Below, one piece after another: positions 2,967-12,712 of a DNA stretch of 15,401 nt (positions are counted from its first letter, which is position 1; every line of letters begins with the position of its first letter). The notes beneath the pieces were generated by a model. The model was not told the DNA's origin. It saw nothing but the letters and a program-made list of their open reading frames with translations, and did no database searches. The position numbers and the translations under genes are program-made. Source of the stretch: a virus. Lineage: Duplodnaviria > Heunggongvirae > Uroviricota > Caudoviricetes. Where the stretch lies: the IMG/VR virus record IMGVR_UViG_2547132277_000010, one strand, 5' to 3'.

Positions 2967-3187
2967 CCATGCATAATGCTCTGTCTGATGAAAAGCTTAT
3001 ATTGAAGTGCGAATATTTTGATTCCATCTTCTTCAACTGTCGCTTGGAATCTCCAGAAAACAGGCATTCCATCATGTTCAGTTTCTGATTTAGGAAAAGG
3101 TACGCTCCATGATTTTGTCATATCTAACCTCAAATAAGTGGTTTGCTGCCAAAACAATGAACCATCCGGAAATTCCAGATAGTTCAT
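2867..3187 (-). CDS. hypothetical protein, 106 aa
   Basis: ATG at 3187 overlaps the TGA of the upstream 74 aa ORF (ATGA). Its last ~33 codons overlap the 104 aa ORF and look less protein-like. Confidence 0.5.
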   Translation of the reverse strand: MNYLEFPDGSLFWQQTTYLRLDMTKSWSVPFPKSETEHDGMPVFWRFQATVEEDGIKIFALQYKLFIRQSIMHGWFLRIGLLILNQHQISGYRNGNKGEIDMQLRK

Positions 3188-3411: not shown

Positions 3412-3795
3412 TTACCTGGCTGTCAGTTGTTTTGATTTCCGGTAGCCTGCTGCGTAAAGAGCTACATTTGGAAGACATACACCAGTTTCTGGTTGCTTAT
3501 GTCCAAACTCATTCGCGTACACAATGGCCGCTCGCTCCAGATTGCGTCTGTATTCTTTCTGTTGCCAGATCACGTCCTGTGCCATGAACTTAATTGGCTT
3601 AGCGTCTTCTATGCGCTCAGGCGTTTCGTGAGTACCTTTAGCCTGAATCTGCGCTCTGCTTAGAGTAGGGCGGTGTAATACTTCTGAACTTATTGCTTCT
3701 TCGCGGGCCAGCACGCCGTTAGCTAATGCCTTTGCCTTTAAACGCTCACGACGACGAGAACGTGAATTGCCTTTGAACTGAGTTCTGCGTGTCAT
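3412..3795 (-). CDS. N: N-type transcription antitermination protein (P22 gp24-like), 127 aa
   Basis: AGGAGG lies 5 nt upstream of the ATG at 3795. N-terminal arginine-rich motif (NSRSRRRERLKAKALA) and C-terminal LPNVALYAAGYRKSKQLTAR, matching the P22 gp24 C-terminus LPGVALYAAGHRKSKQITAR as I recall it. Confidence 0.85.
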   Translation of the reverse strand: MTRRTQFKGNSRSRRRERLKAKALANGVLAREEAISSEVLHRPTLSRAQIQAKGTHETPERIEDAKPIKFMAQDVIWQQKEYRRNLERAAIVYANEFGHKQPETGVCLPNVALYAAGYRKSKQLTAR

Positions 3796-4256: not shown

Positions 4257-4286
4257 AGAAAACCCGGCGCTGAGGCCGGGTTTTTC
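4257..4286 (-). terminator. bidirectional intrinsic terminator (AAAA-AACCCGGC-GCTGAG-GCCGGGTT-TTTTT) ending the cI / accessory-gene operon
   Basis: 8 bp GC-rich stem with runs on both sides, placed directly after the stop of the 258 aa ORF. Confidence 0.65.
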
Positions 4287-5062
4287 TAGGCTACCAGAGA
4301 CTCAATCCAAGAGTCTCTGGTATGGAATGGCAACACTCGTGCGGTATCATTAAATAGTAGTGATAGTTGCTGTAGCTCAGGTGTTAACCCATCGCTGTCA
4401 ACTATTACAAATCTATTGTTTATGTCAGGAACGACCTGACTTAAGTCAACAATCTTCCCAACTGTTGAGTGGGCAGTATTCCATCCCTTACTGCTGGCAA
4501 GGCTTACCGTAAACCCGCGTTTTGGTGGTATTAGTCGAGACTCATTCCTTAGCGTTAACGGAACAGTAATGTTATGCCCACTAATACCTTTCACTTTTTC
4601 CTTTAAGGCTAGTCGCTTCCCAAGCCCTGCTGATTTTAAGTAACTGATTACACATTTTTCGAACTTATCGTCTTTGACCTCAGCATACCAATCAGCAGTT
4701 TGGGCGGATGCAAGAATCCCACCACGAATAACATTTGCAGTTACCTGTCCAACGGACGACTCATCTGCCCACGCAGATATCTCTCCAGAGTCATTTAATG
4801 AAATTCCTTGCGAAGCGAGTGATGACCTGATCAGATCAATTTTCTTTTTAGTCAGGTGGATGCCGCGTGATTCAATATTCATCAATGTATCGCAGTAGTC
4901 TGTAACCCTATACTGACCACTCATCTCTTGAACGAATACACTTATCTGCTCACAATCATCGTAGTATGTGAATGGACTAATAACGCGCAGCAACGTGTCG
5001 CTCATTGGGTGGCATTCAAACCCGAGCTTAGATATGACTGTTGAACACGTTACATTTCCCAT
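4286..5062 (-). CDS. hypothetical protein, 258 aa; distal gene of a two-gene accessory cassette in the rexAB-equivalent position
   Basis: ATG at 5062 lies 10 nt upstream of the stop of the 180 aa ORF (13 nt overlap); AGGT is upstream. No family recognised and no obvious transmembrane segments. The locus is visibly more AT-rich than flanking phage DNA. Confidence 0.75.
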   Translation of the reverse strand: MGNVTCSTVISKLGFECHPMSDTLLRVISPFTYYDDCEQISVFVQEMSGQYRVTDYCDTLMNIESRGIHLTKKKIDLIRSSLASQGISLNDSGEISAWADESSVGQVTANVIRGGILASAQTADWYAEVKDDKFEKCVISYLKSAGLGKRLALKEKVKGISGHNITVPLTLRNESRLIPPKRGFTVSLASSKGWNTAHSTVGKIVDLSQVVPDINNRFVIVDSDGLTPELQQLSLLFNDTARVLPFHTRDSWIESLVA

Positions 5063-5592
5063 GATAACTGACCTGATTTATCTTGATTAGGTAAAGGTGG
5101 GCTGCCTTCATATATGATATTAAGCGCCTCGCAAAAATAATTCCAGTAGCCAAAAAAATCATCTGGCTTGATGTTCGTTTCAAGCTTAAGTGCAATTTCT
5201 TCCCCAGCTGATTCGAAGTACATGTGATAGTGAGGACCTCGAGCCACCTCAACAAAATCTGGATGGTTCACTATAGATTTATTACGGTGTGGCTTGTTAT
5301 CCGCAGGGTACGGATCAAGCGCGTAAATGCGCCTGTCATGAAGAAACATCACAAATGAAATCTTCACTATATCCACCCCTTCAACGATAGGAGGACGCCA
5401 GTGAAGCATAAATCTTATGCCTGTGATTGGGTTGCCAATTTCATCAAAAGCTTTGAGATCCAATTTAAACCAGATTGGGGTTCGTCCCTCACTTCCGGTC
5501 CATGTAACTCCGCTAAAAGTTACTTTTTTCAAGCGAGTAATAGCTTGGTCAACCTCTTTCTGGGTAGGCTTAAAGTCGCCTTTTTTAGCCAC
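5050..5592 (-). CDS. hypothetical protein, 180 aa; proximal gene of the accessory cassette downstream of cI
   Basis: Longest ORF begins at GTG 5592 with no nearby in-frame ATG; GGTGA lies about 9 nt upstream. Same strand as cI, 97 bp downstream of its stop. No family recognised. Confidence 0.7.
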   Translation of the reverse strand: MAKKGDFKPTQKEVDQAITRLKKVTFSGVTWTGSEGRTPIWFKLDLKAFDEIGNPITGIRFMLHWRPPIVEGVDIVKISFVMFLHDRRIYALDPYPADNKPHRNKSIVNHPDFVEVARGPHYHMYFESAGEEIALKLETNIKPDDFFGYWNYFCEALNIIYEGSPPLPNQDKSGQLSWEM

Positions 5593-5689: not shown

Positions 5690-6397
5690 TCACGAACTTT
5701 TCAGCCACTCCCTTGCCTCGATGTCATCCAGATGGCGAGATTGCTTCAGAATACCAGCCACATACTCCACCTTTGCTACTTGATGATAAGGCAACGTTAT
5801 TGGCCTATGGTCCTGGTTGATGCTTGTAAACTGGTATTCTCCGTCTCTGTCATAGCCAAGAACTTTGATCATGTTGTGTCCTTCAACGGTTCTGACAAAC
5901 ACCTCATCACCCGGGAATACTTTGGTGTTAGGCTCAATGAGTACATATTCTCCTGATTTTATTCTAGGCCACATGCTGTCTCCTTTCACACGAAGACCAA
6001 AGGCATCTGGATCATCGCTATAAATCTTGAGCCACCCATCGCGCTCTTCGGTCATCTCGATGGCACCATCAACACCAAGAATTGCCTCACCAACCACGCG
6101 CACTAACCCTTTTTTTAATTTGCCAACAAATGAAAGAGTATCTTCATCATTCGCTCCATTTAACGAAGTGCCGTGCTGAAGCCAAACAACATCAACGTTT
6201 AGAAATTTCGCAAGCGCATTCATTTTTTCCTGACGCGGTAAAGACTCAGCATTAAACCACTTGCTAACGCCTTTGGACGAAAGAGAAAGGGCACGGGCTA
6301 TAGCCATTCCCCTACCATGTTCATCAAGACCAGCTTCTTTACAGGCTTGCGCTAGCCGCTGGGCGAATTCTTTGCGCACTTTTTCATTCTGAACCAT
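5690..6397 (-). CDS. cI: CI-type prophage repressor (N-terminal HTH, C-terminal LexA-like S24 peptidase domain), 235 aa
   Basis: HTH region MAIARALSLSSKGVSKWFNAES and C-terminal GDSMWP...VLIEP motifs typical of autocleaving repressors. Divergent from the cro-like gene. No Shine-Dalgarno before the ATG, consistent with a leaderless pRM transcript as in lambda. Confidence 0.9.
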   Translation of the reverse strand: MVQNEKVRKEFAQRLAQACKEAGLDEHGRGMAIARALSLSSKGVSKWFNAESLPRQEKMNALAKFLNVDVVWLQHGTSLNGANDEDTLSFVGKLKKGLVRVVGEAILGVDGAIEMTEERDGWLKIYSDDPDAFGLRVKGDSMWPRIKSGEYVLIEPNTKVFPGDEVFVRTVEGHNMIKVLGYDRDGEYQFTSINQDHRPITLPYHQVAKVEYVAGILKQSRHLDDIEAREWLKSS

Positions 6398-6404
6398 GAG
6401 TACG

Positions 6405-6457
6405 ATACTAAAGCACTTGCAAAAACTTTCAGTTCAATCATAATGTGTACTGAAAGT
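6405..6457. promoter_or_regulatory. OR/pR/pRM switch region: candidate pR (-35 TTGCAA 6417-6422, 16 bp spacer, -10 CATAAT 6439-6444) with operator-like inverted repeats
   Basis: Inverted repeat ACTTTCAGT (6425-6433) / ACTGAAAGT (6449-6457) and the AGTTC-N11-GnACT arrangement shared with the pL region. A weak pRM -10 (TAGTAT) would place the start at the cI ATG. Confidence 0.5.
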
Positions 6458-6475
6458 ACGAAAAAGGATATTCCT

Positions 6476-6703
6476 ATGCAAAATCTTGATGAGCCGATTA
6501 AAGGTGTCGGCATCCCTGAAGTTGCGAAGGCTTGTGGAGTTAGCGAAAGGGCTGTCTATAAGTGGCTCAAAAACGGCTTCCTCCCTAAGACTGAGTTTTT
6601 TGGGAAAACGAAATACGCATCAAAAATCGAAGAGATTTCTGGTGGCAAATATCAAGCAAGCGAAATGCTTGAAATAAGCAAAAAGAACCTTCTGGCTGCA
6701 TAA
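6476..6703 (+). CDS. cro: Cro-like HTH regulator, 75 aa (start at the internal ATG 6476, not the track's 6443)
   Basis: AAGGA lies 8 nt upstream of ATG 6476. HTH VAKACGVSERAVYKWLKNG. First rightward gene, divergent from cI. Confidence 0.75.
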   Translation: MQNLDEPIKGVGIPEVAKACGVSERAVYKWLKNGFLPKTEFFGKTKYASKIEEISGGKYQASEMLEISKKNLLAA

Positions 6704-6710
6704 GTAACAC

Positions 6711-6756
6711 CGCTATTTTCACAATGGACATTCGTCCTACGTCGCTGACAAAGCGA
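6711..6756 (+). promoter_or_regulatory. nutR: boxA-like CGCTATTTT (6711-6719) and boxB hairpin UCGCUGACAAAGCGA (6742-6756)
   Basis: The boxB loop UGACAAA is identical to the nutL boxB loop. Located directly after the cro stop, as in lambdoid phages. Confidence 0.55.
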
Positions 6757-7183
6757 GCCCCAAGATATCTCCTCTCTGGTTATCTGCATCATCGTCTGCC
6801 TGTCATGGGCTGTTAATCATTACCGGGATAACGCCATCGCCTACAAAGCCCAGCGCGACAAAGCCACATCCATCATCGCTGACATGCAGAAGCGTCAACG
6901 TGATGTAGCAGAACTTGACGCCAGATACACAAAGGAGCTTGCTGATGCTAACGCGACTATCGAAAGTCTCCGCGCTGATGTTTCTGCTGGTCGTAAGCGC
7001 CTGCAAGTCGCCGCCACCTGTGCAAAGTCAACGACCGGAGCCAGCAGCATGGGCGATGGAGAAAGCCCAGGACTTACAGCAGATGCTGAACTCAATTATT
7101 ACCGTCTCAGAAGTGGAATCGACAGGATAACCGCGCAGGTTAACTACCTGCAGGAGTACATCAGGACTCAGTGCCTGAAATAA
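6749..7183 (+). pseudogene. Rz: Rz (i-spanin) homolog truncated at the 5' end; an internal ATG at 6884 could give a 99 aa product lacking the membrane anchor
   Basis: Translation [22 protein letters not shown]...RQRDV...YTKELADA...AGRKRL...QC closely parallels lambda Rz (from memory). The frame opens only after a TGA at 6746-6748; the first ~9 codons and any ATG/GTG/TTG start are absent. Confidence 0.75.
6945..7130 (+). CDS. Rz1: Rz1 (o-spanin) outer-membrane lipoprotein embedded in the +1 frame of Rz, 61 aa
   Basis: AGGAG lies 8 nt upstream of ATG 6945. Signal-peptide-like N-terminus with lipobox LVVSAC followed by a proline-rich mature part ([12 protein letters not shown]), the hallmark Rz1 architecture. 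Confidence 0.75.
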
Positions 7184-7215
7184 TTTTTTTGCAAATCACA
7201 AAGTCCATTTAATGA

Positions 7216-7238
7216 GCCTCGCGATGCGGGGCTTTTTT
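7216..7238 (+). terminator. intrinsic terminator after Rz/Rz1 (GCCTCGC-GAT-GCGGGGC followed by TTTTTT)
   Basis: Hairpin with one G-U pair followed by a six-T run, about 30 nt after the Rz stop. Confidence 0.55.
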
Positions 7239-7385
7239 ATGTCCGCAGTAAACACGCTTCACACGCGCGACTTATGAACACAGAACCTTTCAGGATGACC
7301 CTTGAGGATGCCGGTTTGGTGATCGGTGCCTTTCTGTGGGCCGGAATCCTGTGTGACAAGGTTCATCACTAAAAGGTGATCACTG

Positions 7386-7916
7386 ATGAAGTACCCAACA
7401 GTTATTGTCAATGGTGTGTCCGTTCGTGTTGATGAGGATGGACGCTACAACTTAAACGATCTCCATGCAGCAGCAGTTGCAAATGGAGAGGCTACAGAGC
7501 AACAGCGCCCAAGCCAGTTTTTGCGTAGCGCGCAGATAAAACGCTTCATAAAAGCACTGGAGGCCAAAGTGCAAAAAAGCACTTTGGAACAAATTCAACC
7601 ACTTAAAATAATCAAAGGTGGTGCAGAACCAGGTGTGTGGGGTGTTGAACTTCTGGCAATCAGATATGCAGCATGGATTAAGCCGGAATTTGAAATCGAA
7701 GTTTATGAAGTTTTCAAAACGGTTGTCCGTCTCGGCGTTGGCGCAATGTCCCGTCTGAATAGAATCGATCACATCATCAATACTGAAACCAAAGCGATAA
7801 GCCAGTGCGCAAGCCAAATGGCTAAGTGGGGCGTTGGTGGGCGAAAAAGATTGCTTCATGTTGCACGTGAGAGAGCGGCAAATGAAGTGCAAATGTATTT
7901 GCCCGGAATGGTGTGA
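7386..7916 (+). CDS. KilA-N domain protein, 176 aa
   Basis: AAGGTG upstream of the ATG. N-terminal region (RYNLNDLH...FLR...KGG...GVWGV.LLA..YAAWIKPEFEIEV) fits the KilA-N consensus as I recall it. Confidence 0.7.
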   Translation: MKYPTVIVNGVSVRVDEDGRYNLNDLHAAAVANGEATEQQRPSQFLRSAQIKRFIKALEAKVQKSTLEQIQPLKIIKGGAEPGVWGVELLAIRYAAWIKPEFEIEVYEVFKTVVRLGVGAMSRLNRIDHIINTETKAISQCASQMAKWGVGGRKRLLHVARERAANEVQMYLPGMV

Positions 7917-8103
7917 TTTCGCAGGTTAATCCAGTTTTTGCATTACGGCAGTACCGCGAAACAACCCAAGCCAGTAAGTGGGGAAATAACACTGGCAGCC
8001 ACTGAAAGATGAACCTCCTGCCTGATGGCAAAAAAGATTCTTTGTGGTGGCGGACTGATGGAAAGACATCTTAATCAAGCAACCACTCCACAGGGTCATA
8101 ATT

Positions 8104-8499
8104 ATGAACGACCAGCAAATCGAAAAAGAAATCGTTGAGAAAGGCAAAACGGCACCGCGTGTAACACCCGAGAAAATTGAAGGCCTCATTTGCAGTGAGC
8201 ATTTTTTCACTGCTGCGCAGGGTGACCACCAGGCTAAAGAAGATGACCTTATTTATAATCCGGAGCCTTATGTCGAAGCCACCCCTGATGCTCTGCACCT
8301 TCTCACTTTCTGCGTATTGGTACTGAAGAATGGCTTCACCGTTACCGGAGAGAGTGCCTGTGCAAGCCAGGAAAACTTTGATGCAGAAATTGGTCGGAAA
8401 ATTGCGCGTGAAAATGCGGTTAACAAAATTTGGATGCTGGAAGGTTACTTGCTGAAGCAGAACCCGACTATTCCAGTTACTCAATTCCTTGTGGTGTAG
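8104..8499 (+). CDS. phage gp49-like (Phage_gp49_66 family?) protein, 131 aa
   Basis: Compact ORF directly upstream of the portal gene. Family assignment is from memory and uncertain. Confidence 0.45.
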   Translation: MNDQQIEKEIVEKGKTAPRVTPEKIEGLICSEHFFTAAQGDHQAKEDDLIYNPEPYVEATPDALHLLTFCVLVLKNGFTVTGESACASQENFDAEIGRKIARENAVNKIWMLEGYLLKQNPTIPVTQFLVV

Positions 8500-8505
8500 G
8501 TTGAT

Positions 8506-10749
8506 ATGGCAGAAAAAAAGATGACTGACTGGCATCGCAAGGTGCTGTGCAACTTTGATAATGCCTGGTCAGCAACGCAGGATATGCGTGAGCAGATTAT
8601 TGAAGCTCAACGTTTCGTCCGGGTGTCCGGCGCACAGTGGGAAGGCAGCACAAACGCTGGTTACTCATTTGATGAAGGCAGGTTTGAGCATTACCCGCGC
8701 TTTGAGCTGAATAAGATTGCCCGTGAATGTGATCGCATCATTGGCGAGTATCGACAGAATCGCATCAGCGTTAAATTCAGGCCGAAGGATGACAAGGCAT
8801 CGGAAGCGTTAGCCGAAAAGATGAACGGCAAATTCCGCGCTGACTATCAGGAAACATCCGGTGGCGAAGCGTGTGATAACGCATTTGATGATGCTGTAAC
8901 GGGCGGATTCTGTTGTTTCCGCATGTGTGCCGATTACGAAGATGAAATGGACCCAAGTAACGAGCAGCGACGCATCAGCCTTCTTCCTGTTTACGACCCG
9001 GCCACATGCGTCTTCTTCGATCAGGACAGCAAGCAATATGACCGCTCTGATGCTATGTGGGCTATGGAAATGTTCTCCATGACGCCTAAAGCGTTCGAGG
9101 CTGAATACCCTGATTCCATCGCGGCAAGCCTTTCTCGTGATGACACTGGCACTCAATATGACTGGTCAACTCCTGATGCTATCTATGTTGGTCGCTACTA
9201 CGAAGTTCGCATAGAGAAGGTGAAGCTCACAGCATGGCGTAACCCTGTTAGCGGAGAAACGGCAATCTATGATGAAGATCAAATCAAAGATATTGTCGAC
9301 GAGCTGACCGATGGTGCATTCGAACTGATTGGCGAGCGAACGGTGAAGAAGCGCCGCGTTTATTGCGGTCTTCTGTCTGGCGCTGAATGGCTGGAAGAAC
9401 CGAAGCGTATTCCGGGCGAACATATTCCTCTCATCCCGGTATATGGGCGTCGATCATTTGTTGATAATCAGGAGCGAATCGAAGGTCACGCAGCAAAAGC
9501 GATGGATGCACAGCGTCTTGAGAACCTGATGGTTTCCATGATTGCAGATAACGCTACTCAAGCTGGCGGTGATGGCATTCCTGTAGTTGATGTTGACATG
9601 ATTCCTGGTCCTCTCGCCACTCATTGGGCGGAGCGCAACAAAAAGCGCCCGGCGTTCCTGCCGATGGTCAGTCTGAAAAACAAAAACGGAGATATTACTG
9701 CGCAGGCTCAGGTCAGCAGTTATACGCCTCCGACACAAATGCCTCCAGCTCTTGCCGGACTATTGCAGTACACCGGAACGGCTATTCAGCAAATTACAGG
9801 TGCGTCGCAGCTTGAGAACATGCCGAGCAACGTCGCTACCGATACCGTTGATAGCATCTTTAACCGGATGGACACGCAGTCCTATATCTACATGGACAAC
9901 ATGGCTAAATCCATGCGCCGTGCTGGCGTCGTGTGGCTTTCTATGGCTCGTGAAGTCTATGGCAGTGATGCGCCGATGCGTATCGTTAATGAGGACGGCA
10001 GCGATGACGTGGCGCTGATGACTGGTGAAGTGGTTGACCGTCAGACAGGGCAGGTTATCGCGCTTAATGACCTTTCGCAGGGTAACTATGAAGTGACTGT
10101 CGATGTTGGCCAGTCGTTCGCTACTCGCCGTGATGCAACGGTTAAGTCGTTACTTTCCATGCTGGCACTTATCTGGCCACAACGGGCGTTCATCCACTGG
10201 CGCATTCAACTGGCAAAAAGTCTGACCGAGTATAATCGGGTCTATCAATCTGCATTCTCACCGAACTTACTCGAACGCCCGCGTCTGGAAAGCCATCTAC
10301 AAAAACTCCTGACCGATGCCGTGAAAATGCGTGGGCTGATTGCGCCCGCCAGCAAAGAAACCCGTATTCCAAAATCGATATATGAAGGTATCCAGACCAT
10401 TAATCGCAATCTGGTTTGTATGCTGGAGTTGCAAATCAATGCATACTGGGCCACGCGCCCCAGCCATTTCGTGTTATTGAACGCGCAAAAACTTCGTGAT
10501 ACCCAGCATATGATGCAGCAAATACTGCTGAGCCTTGTTCATGCGCTGTACGAAGGTAATCCGCAGCCGGTTTTTGCCAATACGGAAAAATTGAACGATG
10601 CTGTGGAAGAGCTGCGTCAGTTGCTGAATAACCACCATGACCTGAAGGTTGTGGAAACACCAATCTATGGTTATGTGTGGCTGAACATGGAAACGGCACA
10701 TCAGCTTGAGTTGCTATCGAATCTGATTTGCCGGGCCTTGCGCAAATAA
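8506..10749 (+). CDS. P22 gp1-type portal protein, apparently chimeric: portal-like to about residue 555, then ~190 residues of unrelated sequence
   Basis: N-terminal FDNAWSATQDMREQ..., central RRVY...GEHIPLIPVYG and ...VDVGQSFATRRDATVKSLLSML parallel P22 portal segments (from memory). The C-terminal tail (from about 10170) lacks the Q/E/A-rich portal barrel and looks like a different soluble domain. Confidence 0.75.
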   Translation: MAEKKMTDWHRKVLCNFDNAWSATQDMREQIIEAQRFVRVSGAQWEGSTNAGYSFDEGRFEHYPRFELNKIARECDRIIGEYRQNRISVKFRPKDDKASEALAEKMNGKFRADYQETSGGEACDNAFDDAVTGGFCCFRMCADYEDEMDPSNEQRRISLLPVYDPATCVFFDQDSKQYDRSDAMWAMEMFSMTPKAFEAEYPDSIAASLSRDDTGTQYDWSTPDAIYVGRYYEVRIEKVKLTAWRNPVSGETAIYDEDQIKDIVDELTDGAFELIGERTVKKRRVYCGLLSGAEWLEEPKRIPGEHIPLIPVYGRRSFVDNQERIEGHAAKAMDAQRLENLMVSMIADNATQAGGDGIPVVDVDMIPGPLATHWAERNKKRPAFLPMVSLKNKNGDITAQAQVSSYTPPTQMPPALAGLLQYTGTAIQQITGASQLENMPSNVATDTVDSIFNRMDTQSYIYMDNMAKSMRRAGVVWLSMAREVYGSDAPMRIVNEDGSDDVALMTGEVVDRQTGQVIALNDLSQGNYEVTVDVGQSFATRRDATVKSLLSMLALIWPQRAFIHWRIQLAKSLTEYNRVYQSAFSPNLLERPRLESHLQKLLTDAVKMRGLIAPASKETRIPKSIYEGIQTINRNLVCMLELQINAYWATRPSHFVLLNAQKLRDTQHMMQQILLSLVHALYEGNPQPVFANTEKLNDAVEELRQLLNNHHDLKVVETPIYGYVWLNMETAHQLELLSNLICRALRK

Positions 10750-12342: not shown

Positions 12343-12712
12343 TTCGCCTCCGGATACTTACCCAGGGTAATGTTATTTACCGTTCTGTAATTGTCGCGGG
12401 TCATCAGGCCGGTCGCCCTGCGAGCCCGGAGGATATCGATGCTGTTTATTAACTGAGAGCGGGTACAGGCGCTGAATCCCGGCTGGTCGGTAGCACCAGC
12501 GCGTATTTTTCCACGAGAAAGTTCACCGCATCACACAGTGAAATGCCTGCCTCAATATGCTGCTCAATCACACGTTCATCGGCAAAAGGTGTGTCATTCA
12601 GTGTGAGGCCATAGTGCTGGTCCAGCAGTCGGGACAGCAGTATCTGCCAGATTTCAACAGGAGACGGGCGAGAACTGGTCGCCTGCCCGGGTAATACAGG
12701 TAATGTTTTCAT
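12339..12712 (-). pseudogene. cbtA: CbtA (YeeV)-family type IV toxin gene disrupted by a 1-base frameshift near 12493
   Basis: The track ORF gives 87 aa ending ...[19 protein letters not shown]. The next frame continues [46 protein letters not shown], matching the YeeV C-terminus as I recall it. One base appears to be missing after GTGC. Confidence 0.7.

Follow-up and report, generated by a model that had tools for sequence, protein, structure and literature searches.

The window analysed here, the whole stretch of 15,401 nucleotides, contains a decayed P22-like (Lederbergvirus) prophage that adjoins sbcB in a lineage of E. coli. The sbcB locus is a known integration site of lambdoid and Stx prophages (PMC8309913). 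The int and xis genes of the element lie next to sbcB, and in three NCBI draft assemblies its other end is flanked by a truncated yeeA. Missing from it are the replication genes, Q, holin, endolysin, terS, terL, the 3' end of the portal gene, every head and tail gene, and attR. Being phage-derived, seated at an attachment site and devoid of functions required for excision, replication, packaging and lysis, the element is a cryptic (defective) prophage.

The left arm is closest to Sepvirinae Stx phages (97-98%). It retains the immunity region and early genes, as the first-pass annotation of this DNA had proposed. The cI repressor gene (5690..6397, minus strand) is intact and encodes a 235-aa protein with HTH and S24 peptidase domains (Pfam HTH_3 and Peptidase_S24). 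This protein is 100% identical to cI of phage 933W, and the 12 nucleotide differences between the two genes are synonymous. The cro gene (6476..6703, plus strand; 75 aa) is also intact and its product is 100% identical to 933W Cro; taken together, the cI and cro genes differ from those of 933W at 13 nucleotides, all synonymous. The oR3-oR2-oR1 operators and the pRM/pR promoters were placed at 6390..6460 (plus strand; pR at 6417-6444) by transferring coordinates from the 933W annotation. The oR3 and oR2 sequences are exactly those of 933W, oR1 has one mismatch, and a promoter-like TTGCAA-16-CATAAT was found in the same region. The gene for the N antiterminator (3412..3795, minus strand; 127 aa; Pfam N_peptide, E=1e-15) has been kept and is colinear with the early-left regions of Stx phages. 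Since the cI/oR/cro switch is intact, the element is predicted to confer 933W-type superinfection immunity. Unlike the Shiga-toxin phage 933W, the window has no stx genes.

A two-gene cassette encoding a DUF1828 protein (258 aa) and a DUF6978-like protein (180 aa), both assigned by Pfam, has also been kept between cI and N (4286..5592, minus strand). In PADLOC the cassette matched PDC-M24B (E=5e-7) and PDC-M24A (E=4e-4) of the candidate system PDC-M24. On the same side of cI 933W has instead a kinase gene (stk) and two further genes, whereas in lambda this position is occupied by rexAB. The DUF1828/DUF6978-like pair sits beside repressors of several immunity types. Its sequence and position suggest a candidate defence module expressed in the lysogen, which may account for the retention of this part of the prophage.

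The nutR::Rz junction

Downstream of cro lies a nutR site (6711..6756, plus strand) in which all 46 bases agree with the annotated 933W nutR. It comprises a boxA-like sequence, CGCTATTTT (6711-6719, plus strand), and two hairpins predicted by RNA folding on the same strand, one between the boxes (6726-6737) and one at boxB (UCGCU-GACAA-AGCGA with the loop GACAA; 6742-6756). A boxA and a boxB hairpin downstream of cro, with the gene for the cognate N factor in the same element, are the features of a lambdoid nutR. Beyond this site 933W reads on into cII, O and P, whereas the window switches to Rz 14 nt past nutR.

The Rz gene (i-spanin) that follows is truncated at its 5' end and has no start codon. 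Codons 8-145 are retained (6767..7183, plus strand), and their translation matches Pfam Phage_lysis (PF03245, E=4.7e-35) over positions 14-125 of the 126-position profile. Homology begins at 6766 with Rz nt 21, where codon 7 ends; nt 1-20 (codons 1-7, including the ATG) have been deleted, and the first whole codon kept is codon 8 rather than a codon near 9 as previously proposed. What remains differs from an intact 145-aa relative by three amino acids. A TGA lies in the Rz frame at 6746-6748, and no ATG, GTG or TTG occurs in this frame ahead of the ATG at 6884 (codon 47), which agrees with the earlier reading of the upstream frame. The ORF that opens at this first in-frame ATG (6884..7183, plus strand; ORF list) has 99 aa and no transmembrane anchor. 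The truncated gene thus has neither the start codon nor the complete N-terminal transmembrane anchor (type II, N-in) of a translatable i-spanin. It also lies outside a lysis cassette, with cro and nutR directly upstream and with holin, endolysin and Q absent from the window and from the 22-kb loci. In lambda, Rz depends on an N-terminal transmembrane anchor and mutation of Met1 makes it lysis-defective (PMC5295617), and the start-less Rz is for this reason almost certainly dead. The 138-aa NCBI model that begins at ATC 6767 is an ORF prolonged as far as the first post-junction codon and provides no evidence of translation.

In contrast to Rz, the embedded Rz1 gene is intact and has its own ribosome-binding site, as first noted. 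The gene for this 61-aa o-spanin lipoprotein (6945-7130, or 6933..7130 with the Shine-Dalgarno sequence; plus strand; Pfam Rz1, PF06085, E=2.2e-20) starts at ATG 6945, 7 nt after an AGGAG at 6933-6937. It lies in the +1 frame of Rz and encodes a signal peptide with a lipobox, VSAC, at Cys20. Compared with intact relatives only the signal peptide differs, the mature part being identical. The arrangement resembles the Rz/Rz1 spanin of lambda, in which Rz1 is likewise in the +1 frame of Rz, both proteins have Pfam matches and the lipobox Cys is residue 20 (PMC5295617). Unlike lambda Rz, the Rz of the window is without its start codon, its first seven codons and the surrounding lysis cassette.

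To locate the junction between nutR and Rz, base-by-base three-way alignments were made that took in 933W, a Stx1c prophage, the phages E212 and CUS-3, and an intact E. coli prophage. They placed deletion junction 1 at a 5-bp microhomology, TATCT (6766..6770), which is common to the nutR-distal spacer and to Rz nt 21-25 and lies 9-14 nt past boxB; the microhomology had been expected earlier, at about 6757-6766. The 933W-type match stops at 6770 (98.2% over 1,130 bp, E=0; megablast against phages), and the match to the Rz and KilA-N genes of an intact E. coli P22-like prophage begins at 6766 (98.7% over 1,305 bp; megablast against 5,426 complete genomes). In the left parent, GCGAGCCCCAAGATATCT is followed by GACCAAC, a string found exactly in a Stx1c prophage. 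At the breakpoint this prophage and phage E212 both read CCCAAGATATCT followed by GACC. The right parent reads ATGAGTAGGTTAACCGCGATTATCT up to the breakpoint and CCGCTCTGG after it. The nutR site runs straight into Rz, nothing is inserted between them and the junction contains neither an IS nor an att site. Both parents are identifiable and share only these few bases, and this is the structure of a microhomology deletion. By calculation, a microhomology of at least 5 bp is expected in ~0.5% of random joins.

Nothing lies between nutR and Rz in the window, whereas intact relatives have 7.8-18 kb there (7,755 bp in E212, and 8.4 to 18 kb in other lambdoid architectures). The breakpoints, both parental sequences and the loss of genes at junction 1 are thereby established. 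The alignments confirm that nutR abuts a 5'-truncated Rz and that the genes normally found between them are gone. They also support the reading of the junction as an internal deletion, because both parental sequences were identified and occur in the expected order in intact phages.

Further deletions in the right arm

Past Rz, a terminator scan detected a hairpin followed by a T-run resembling an intrinsic terminator (7214..7243, plus strand). It is followed by a KilA-N domain gene (7386..7916, plus strand; Pfam KilA-N), a late-region accessory gene of P22-like phages that adjoins Rz in intact prophages and has been kept. The next gene (8104..8499, plus strand) belongs to the gp49/Sf6-gp66 family (Pfam Phage_gp49_66). 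Alignments to phages Huey and CUS-3 revealed that its last five codons have been swapped for the 3' tail of terL. Here a second deletion junction, using AA (8461-8462), joins this gene to the final 44 nt of terL, with loss of terS and terL.

The third junction lies in a gene (8506..10749, plus strand) in which the first 556 of ~732 codons of a P22-type portal are fused in frame to the 3' part of the host gene yeeA, as determined by BLAST to CUS-3 and to E. coli XH990. Pfam P22_portal covers residues 15-559 of the fusion protein. Junction 3 uses TATC (10170-10173) and joins portal codon 556 to yeeA nt 480; the yeeA parent reads TATCT at this point. Lost here along with attR were ~15 kb of morphogenesis genes, dacD, sbmC and the 5' portion of yeeA. 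Since attR is gone, the remnant cannot excise and is locked in the chromosome. The three deletions in the element thus used 5, 2 and 4 bp of short homology. The first-pass annotation had described a prophage that was defective merely in replication and lysis. The gene losses it named are real, but the decay goes further, with at least three deletions and with terS, terL and attR also gone.

Origin of the scar

Complete relatives of the element provide a likely picture of its parent. The integrases of E212 (Lederbergvirus) and EC.P3 are 99.7% identical to that of the element and the integrase of Sf101 is 98.8% identical, and the portal genes of all three are 97% identical to the portal part of the fusion (96-97% for E212). 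Since E212, EC.P3 and Sf101 share both its integrase and its portal, the two ends of the remnant point to one P22-like parent at sbcB. E212 and CUS-3 have the nutR-distal spacer, Rz/Rz1 (95%) and the portal (96-98%) in common with the window, although CUS-3 has no detected match to the window integrase. E212 is colinear with the remnant from attP/int through the nutR spacer, Rz and the segment at 7943-8070 (downstream of the KilA-N gene) to the portal. Unlike the remnant, E212, EC.P3, Sf101 and CUS-3 are complete phages of 38-40 kb, and their cI/cro immunity modules and several accessory genes differ from those of the window. E212, for example, has a different cI and a nutR that is only 90% identical. 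Outside these phages, another intact P22-like prophage carries left-arm modules that are 95-98% like those of the window, and the sbcB-dacD site of another E. coli holds the remnant of a P22-type tailspike together with int and xis like those of the window.

E212 holds both copies of TATCT as direct repeats, 7,755 bp apart and in the same order and orientation as in the window. The first lies just past nutR, where the sequence CCCAAGATATCT continues with GACC, and the second is at Rz nt 21-25, where GCGATTATCT continues with CCGCTCTGG. Between the repeats lie cII, O, P, ninB, dam, ninF, roi, rusA, ninH, Q, holin and lysin. A single deletion between these 5-bp repeats yields exactly the window sequence. 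An undeleted ancestor combining 933W-type immunity with this set of Rz, KilA-N, gp66 and portal genes was not found among complete E. coli genomes or GTDB representatives, and an exact lookup of the DUF1828 protein for such an ancestor returned only unrelated lambdoid prophages with the same cassette. The parent described here is thus a reconstruction from relatives.

Collectively, these results suggest, with a probability of about 0.88, that junction 1 is the scar of one microhomology-mediated illegitimate deletion within a single P22-like prophage. The parent would have been a mosaic P22-like prophage with 933W-type immunity, integrated beside sbcB. A crossover between the TATCT copy past the nutR boxB and the copy at Rz nt 21-25 would have removed ~7.8 kb, as judged from the spacing of the repeats in an E212-like parent. 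The structure of the junction points to replication slippage or microhomology end-joining as the likely route. The deleted segment would have held cII, the O/P replication genes and origin, the nin region, Q and the late promoter, holin, endolysin and Rz codons 1-7. To the left this would have left the cI/pRM-pR/cro switch, nutR, N and the leftward early genes. To the right it would have left the start-less Rz, the intact Rz1 and a few late-region genes, now directly downstream of pR-cro-nutR.

The closest analogue of this junction is the ydaW'-'rzpR/rzoR scar in the Rac prophage of E. coli K-12. Like the window, Rac has a 5'-truncated Rz with a residual ORF of 300 nt (99 codons), annotated in Rac as the pseudogene rzpR, keeps an intact embedded 61-aa Rz1 homologue (rzoR), and has lost the late regulator, holin and endolysin by internal deletion. 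The Rac breakpoint lies within the same TATCT of Rz (nt 21-25), with the crossover in TA, that is, in 2 bp compared with 5 bp in the window. The left partner in Rac is the DUF1627 gene ydaW of the replication region, the parent of which was identified in a strain with an intact DUF1627 gene, whereas the left partner in the window is the spacer past nutR. Rac also keeps ydaU and ydaV, whereas the window has lost its replication genes. Past the first 100 nt the two Rz alleles share only 76% identity, and the immunity type and integration site differ. Because the left partners are unrelated and the Rz alleles different, the truncations in Rac and in the window are independent events.

The shared endpoint raises the alternative that its position was set by sequence-directed breakage or joining at TATC(T), or by a fragile R/Rz boundary, and not by chance microhomology. 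The Rac crossover, with its unrelated left partner and different Rz allele, hints at such an influence, as do the TATC at junction 3 and the TATCT of the yeeA parent. To look for a hot spot, genome, metagenome and viral collections were surveyed with two Rz-anchored patterns, which returned ~240 copies of Rz. An intact ATG or GTG start was present in 229 of them. Besides the window lineage and Rac, the only truncations were caused by an insertion of IS2 at codon 3-4 and by a single junction near nt 14, so that no further independent junction at the Rz TATCT was found among the ~240 copies. Moreover, TATCT is common (23 occurrences per strand in the window), junction 2 uses AA, the coincidences were spotted post hoc and no known enzyme specificity was matched. 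A directed choice of endpoint is therefore unlikely, and we give slightly less credence still to the broader proposal that the TATCT at Rz nt 21-25 is a recurrent, sequence- or structure-directed endpoint of prophage-inactivating deletions, towards which it would also point that the Rz events in Rac and in the window both kept Rz1 and dropped holin and endolysin. Since the survey gave no further cases and TATCT is common in the window, we treat its recurrence as an after-the-fact coincidence. Most non-enteric matches in the survey were contamination with lambda control DNA. The att core of phage Stx2_16002 was also considered as a source of the TATCT endpoints and was rejected, as this phage integrates in a tRNA gene and its similarity to the element extends only from xis inward.

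A second alternative is that two prophages, one Stx-like (int to nutR) and one P22-like (Rz to portal), recombined, either as a tandem pair at sbcB or from other places in the chromosome. The two arms do have their best matches in different groups, the left in Sepvirinae Stx phages and the right in the Lederbergvirus phages CUS-3 and E212, and no single database genome has both arms at high identity. However, the integrase of the left arm is of the P22-like E212/EC.P3/Sf101 type (98.8-99.7%), P22-like prophages share left-arm modules with the window (95-98%), and the colinearity of E212 with the remnant spans both arms. Both arms are also correctly oriented between sbcB and yeeA, and lambdoid phages swap immunity modules freely. 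We therefore consider an origin from two prophages improbable.

It is more doubtful still that the truncated Rz is made from a non-canonical start (ATC 6767 or CTG 6776) and works as an i-spanin with Rz1. NCBI annotates a 138-aa 'lysis protein' from 6767, the 138 codons are open with only three substitutions, and most of the hydrophobic anchor (15 residues) is kept. The open frame can, however, be accounted for by the recency of the lineage, whose assemblies are 100% identical, and by the fact that Rz1 overlaps it. A non-canonical start was rejected because ATG, GTG and TTG are missing, there is no upstream Shine-Dalgarno sequence and the 3' arm of the boxB hairpin occupies the bases just ahead. 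In addition, the N-terminal basic residue is gone, loss of Met1 abolishes the function of lambda Rz (PMC5295617), and with holin and endolysin absent there is nothing for a spanin to complete.

The weakest alternative, a collapsed or chimeric contig from which genes really present are missing, has a negligible likelihood: although the sequence comes from draft assemblies and complete RefSeq genomes of E. coli do not have the junction, three separate deposits agree at 100% across 13.8-15.4 kb, proteins that depend on the junction are encoded on 58-65 contigs, among them contigs of 4.87 Mb, and the flanks share only 5 bp, with no repeat able to cause a collapse.

Carriers and predicted consequences of the deletion

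The window is 100% identical to the three independently deposited NCBI draft assemblies, and the nutR::Rz junction is the same in all three, which excludes the assembly artefact that had been named as a possible refutation. The fused portal protein was found on 58 contigs and the 138-aa NCBI model of the truncated Rz on 65, all labelled E. coli. Because the assemblies are identical and the junction proteins are this widespread, the nutR::Rz scar is real and has been passed down within a lineage. The junction was absent from the 5,426 complete E. coli genomes of RefSeq (megablast queries: the window as a whole, its left arm and the sequence around the junction), and a 35-mer spanning it had no match in GTDB species-representative genomes. 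The 99-aa Rz ORF is annotated at that length in a strain labelled E. coli TW10598, an enterotoxigenic challenge strain. A search of the literature on TW10598 prophages or rzpR yielded nothing relevant.

Lacking O/P, the origin, Q, pR', holin, endolysin, terminase and the virion genes, the element is predicted to be unable to replicate, to run late transcription, to lyse its host or to package DNA. Internal deletion of lethal functions is the expected route of prophage domestication, and the process seen here is prophage decay by short-homology deletion in which lethal functions are removed and immunity is kept. The scar is a well-resolved, fresh example of this known process and leaves its current understanding unchanged. 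It provides a base-level record of how a P22-like prophage was disarmed and locked in the chromosome by three short-homology deletions, a decay that left the repressor, the candidate defence cassette and early genes.

The deletion also places Rz1, the KilA-N gene, the portal-YeeA fusion and possibly the host gene tmaR downstream of an SOS-inducible, N-antiterminated promoter. From this arrangement, transcripts from pR that are modified by N at nutR after SOS derepression would be predicted to run into Rz1, kilA-N and beyond. Since the retained cI protein is identical to that of 933W, strains carrying the element, including TW10598, are predicted to be immune to 933W-type Stx phages, which is of modest epidemiological interest.

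Truncation of Rz

The breakpoint in Rz at the main junction (window 6766-6770) has a counterpart in the K-12 cryptic prophage Rac. At the Rac ydaW'::'rzpR junction (6201-6205 of the fetched locus L013; NC_000913.3, ~1423200), Rz is likewise broken within TATCT at nt 21-25 of the gene, whereas the left partners of the two junctions are unrelated and the Rz alleles differ. Among the ~240 Rz copies surveyed, no third independent case of a breakpoint at TATCT was found.

Rz has also been truncated by another route. In E. coli ECMA0423 and Shigella flexneri SFBU1023, the gene is cut at codon 3-4 by the abutting end of an element, …GGAAATATAGGGGCAAATCCA (loci L027, ~3025-3037, and L049, ~7540-7552), which we take to be an IS2 terminus. 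The remaining point from the survey concerns the matches to the Rz 5' pattern in the genome collection (L014-L056), 33 of 43 of which carried lambda-type R/Rz upstream sequence. Almost all of these 33 were in assemblies of unrelated organisms (e.g. Pseudomonas, Kitasatospora, Cohnella and Flavobacterium), together with several MAGs, and many of the contigs were ~3.5 kb or 48 kb in length. This pattern looks like contamination with sequencing-control DNA.

Public annotations treat the truncated Rz in two ways. The NCBI model (window 6767-7183), present on 65 contigs, is a 138-aa 'lysis protein' with the non-canonical start codon ATC at 6767, and the annotation of E. coli TW10598 has just a 99-aa ORF from 6884; neither is flagged as a pseudogene.

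Second and third deletion junctions

The second junction (window 8461-8462) lies within the ORF at 8104-8499 and has a 2-bp overlap, AA. This ORF consists of a gp49/Sf6-gp66-family gene without its terminal 5 codons, followed by the final 44 nt of terL. As a result of this junction, nearly all of terL is gone, together with terS, within which the pac site normally lies in P22-like phages. The third junction (window 10170-10173), joined through TATC, lies within the ORF at 8506-10749, in which 556 of the ~732 codons of a P22-type portal gene are fused in frame to the host gene yeeA at nt 480. All of the prophage beyond this point is missing, as are attR, dacD, sbmC and the 5' portion of yeeA. 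The 747-aa portal-YeeA fusion protein is labelled simply 'portal protein' on 58 public contigs.

Immunity region and adjoining cassette

The cI and Cro proteins (window 5690-6703) match their counterparts in Stx2 phage 933W at 100% identity. The cI and cro genes differ from those of 933W at 13 nucleotides, every change being synonymous, and there are no differences in oR2, oR3 or nutR. Given these identities in protein and site sequence, E. coli strains carrying this prophage remnant should be immune to 933W-type Stx phages.

Between cI and N, on the minus strand, is a two-gene cassette (window 4286-5592) encoding a DUF1828 protein (258 aa) and a DUF6978-like protein (180 aa). In PADLOC, it matches PDC-M24, a candidate defence system (B, E = 5e-7; A, E = 4e-4). 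The public collection lists 4,213 blocks with exactly this DUF1828 protein, and the pair adjoins a prophage repressor at all sites inspected, with repressors spanning several immunity types.

Left arm and neighbouring island

In the left arm, there is a 140-nt overlap between the ORF at 1051-1506, of DUF551 type, and that at 1367-1930, for a Rad52-like recombinase; this overlap may represent a further mosaic or deletion junction. In the CP4-44-like island next door, the cbtA toxin ORF (window 12449-12712) encodes just 87 aa, and the annotation of a related strain marks cbtA as frameshifted.
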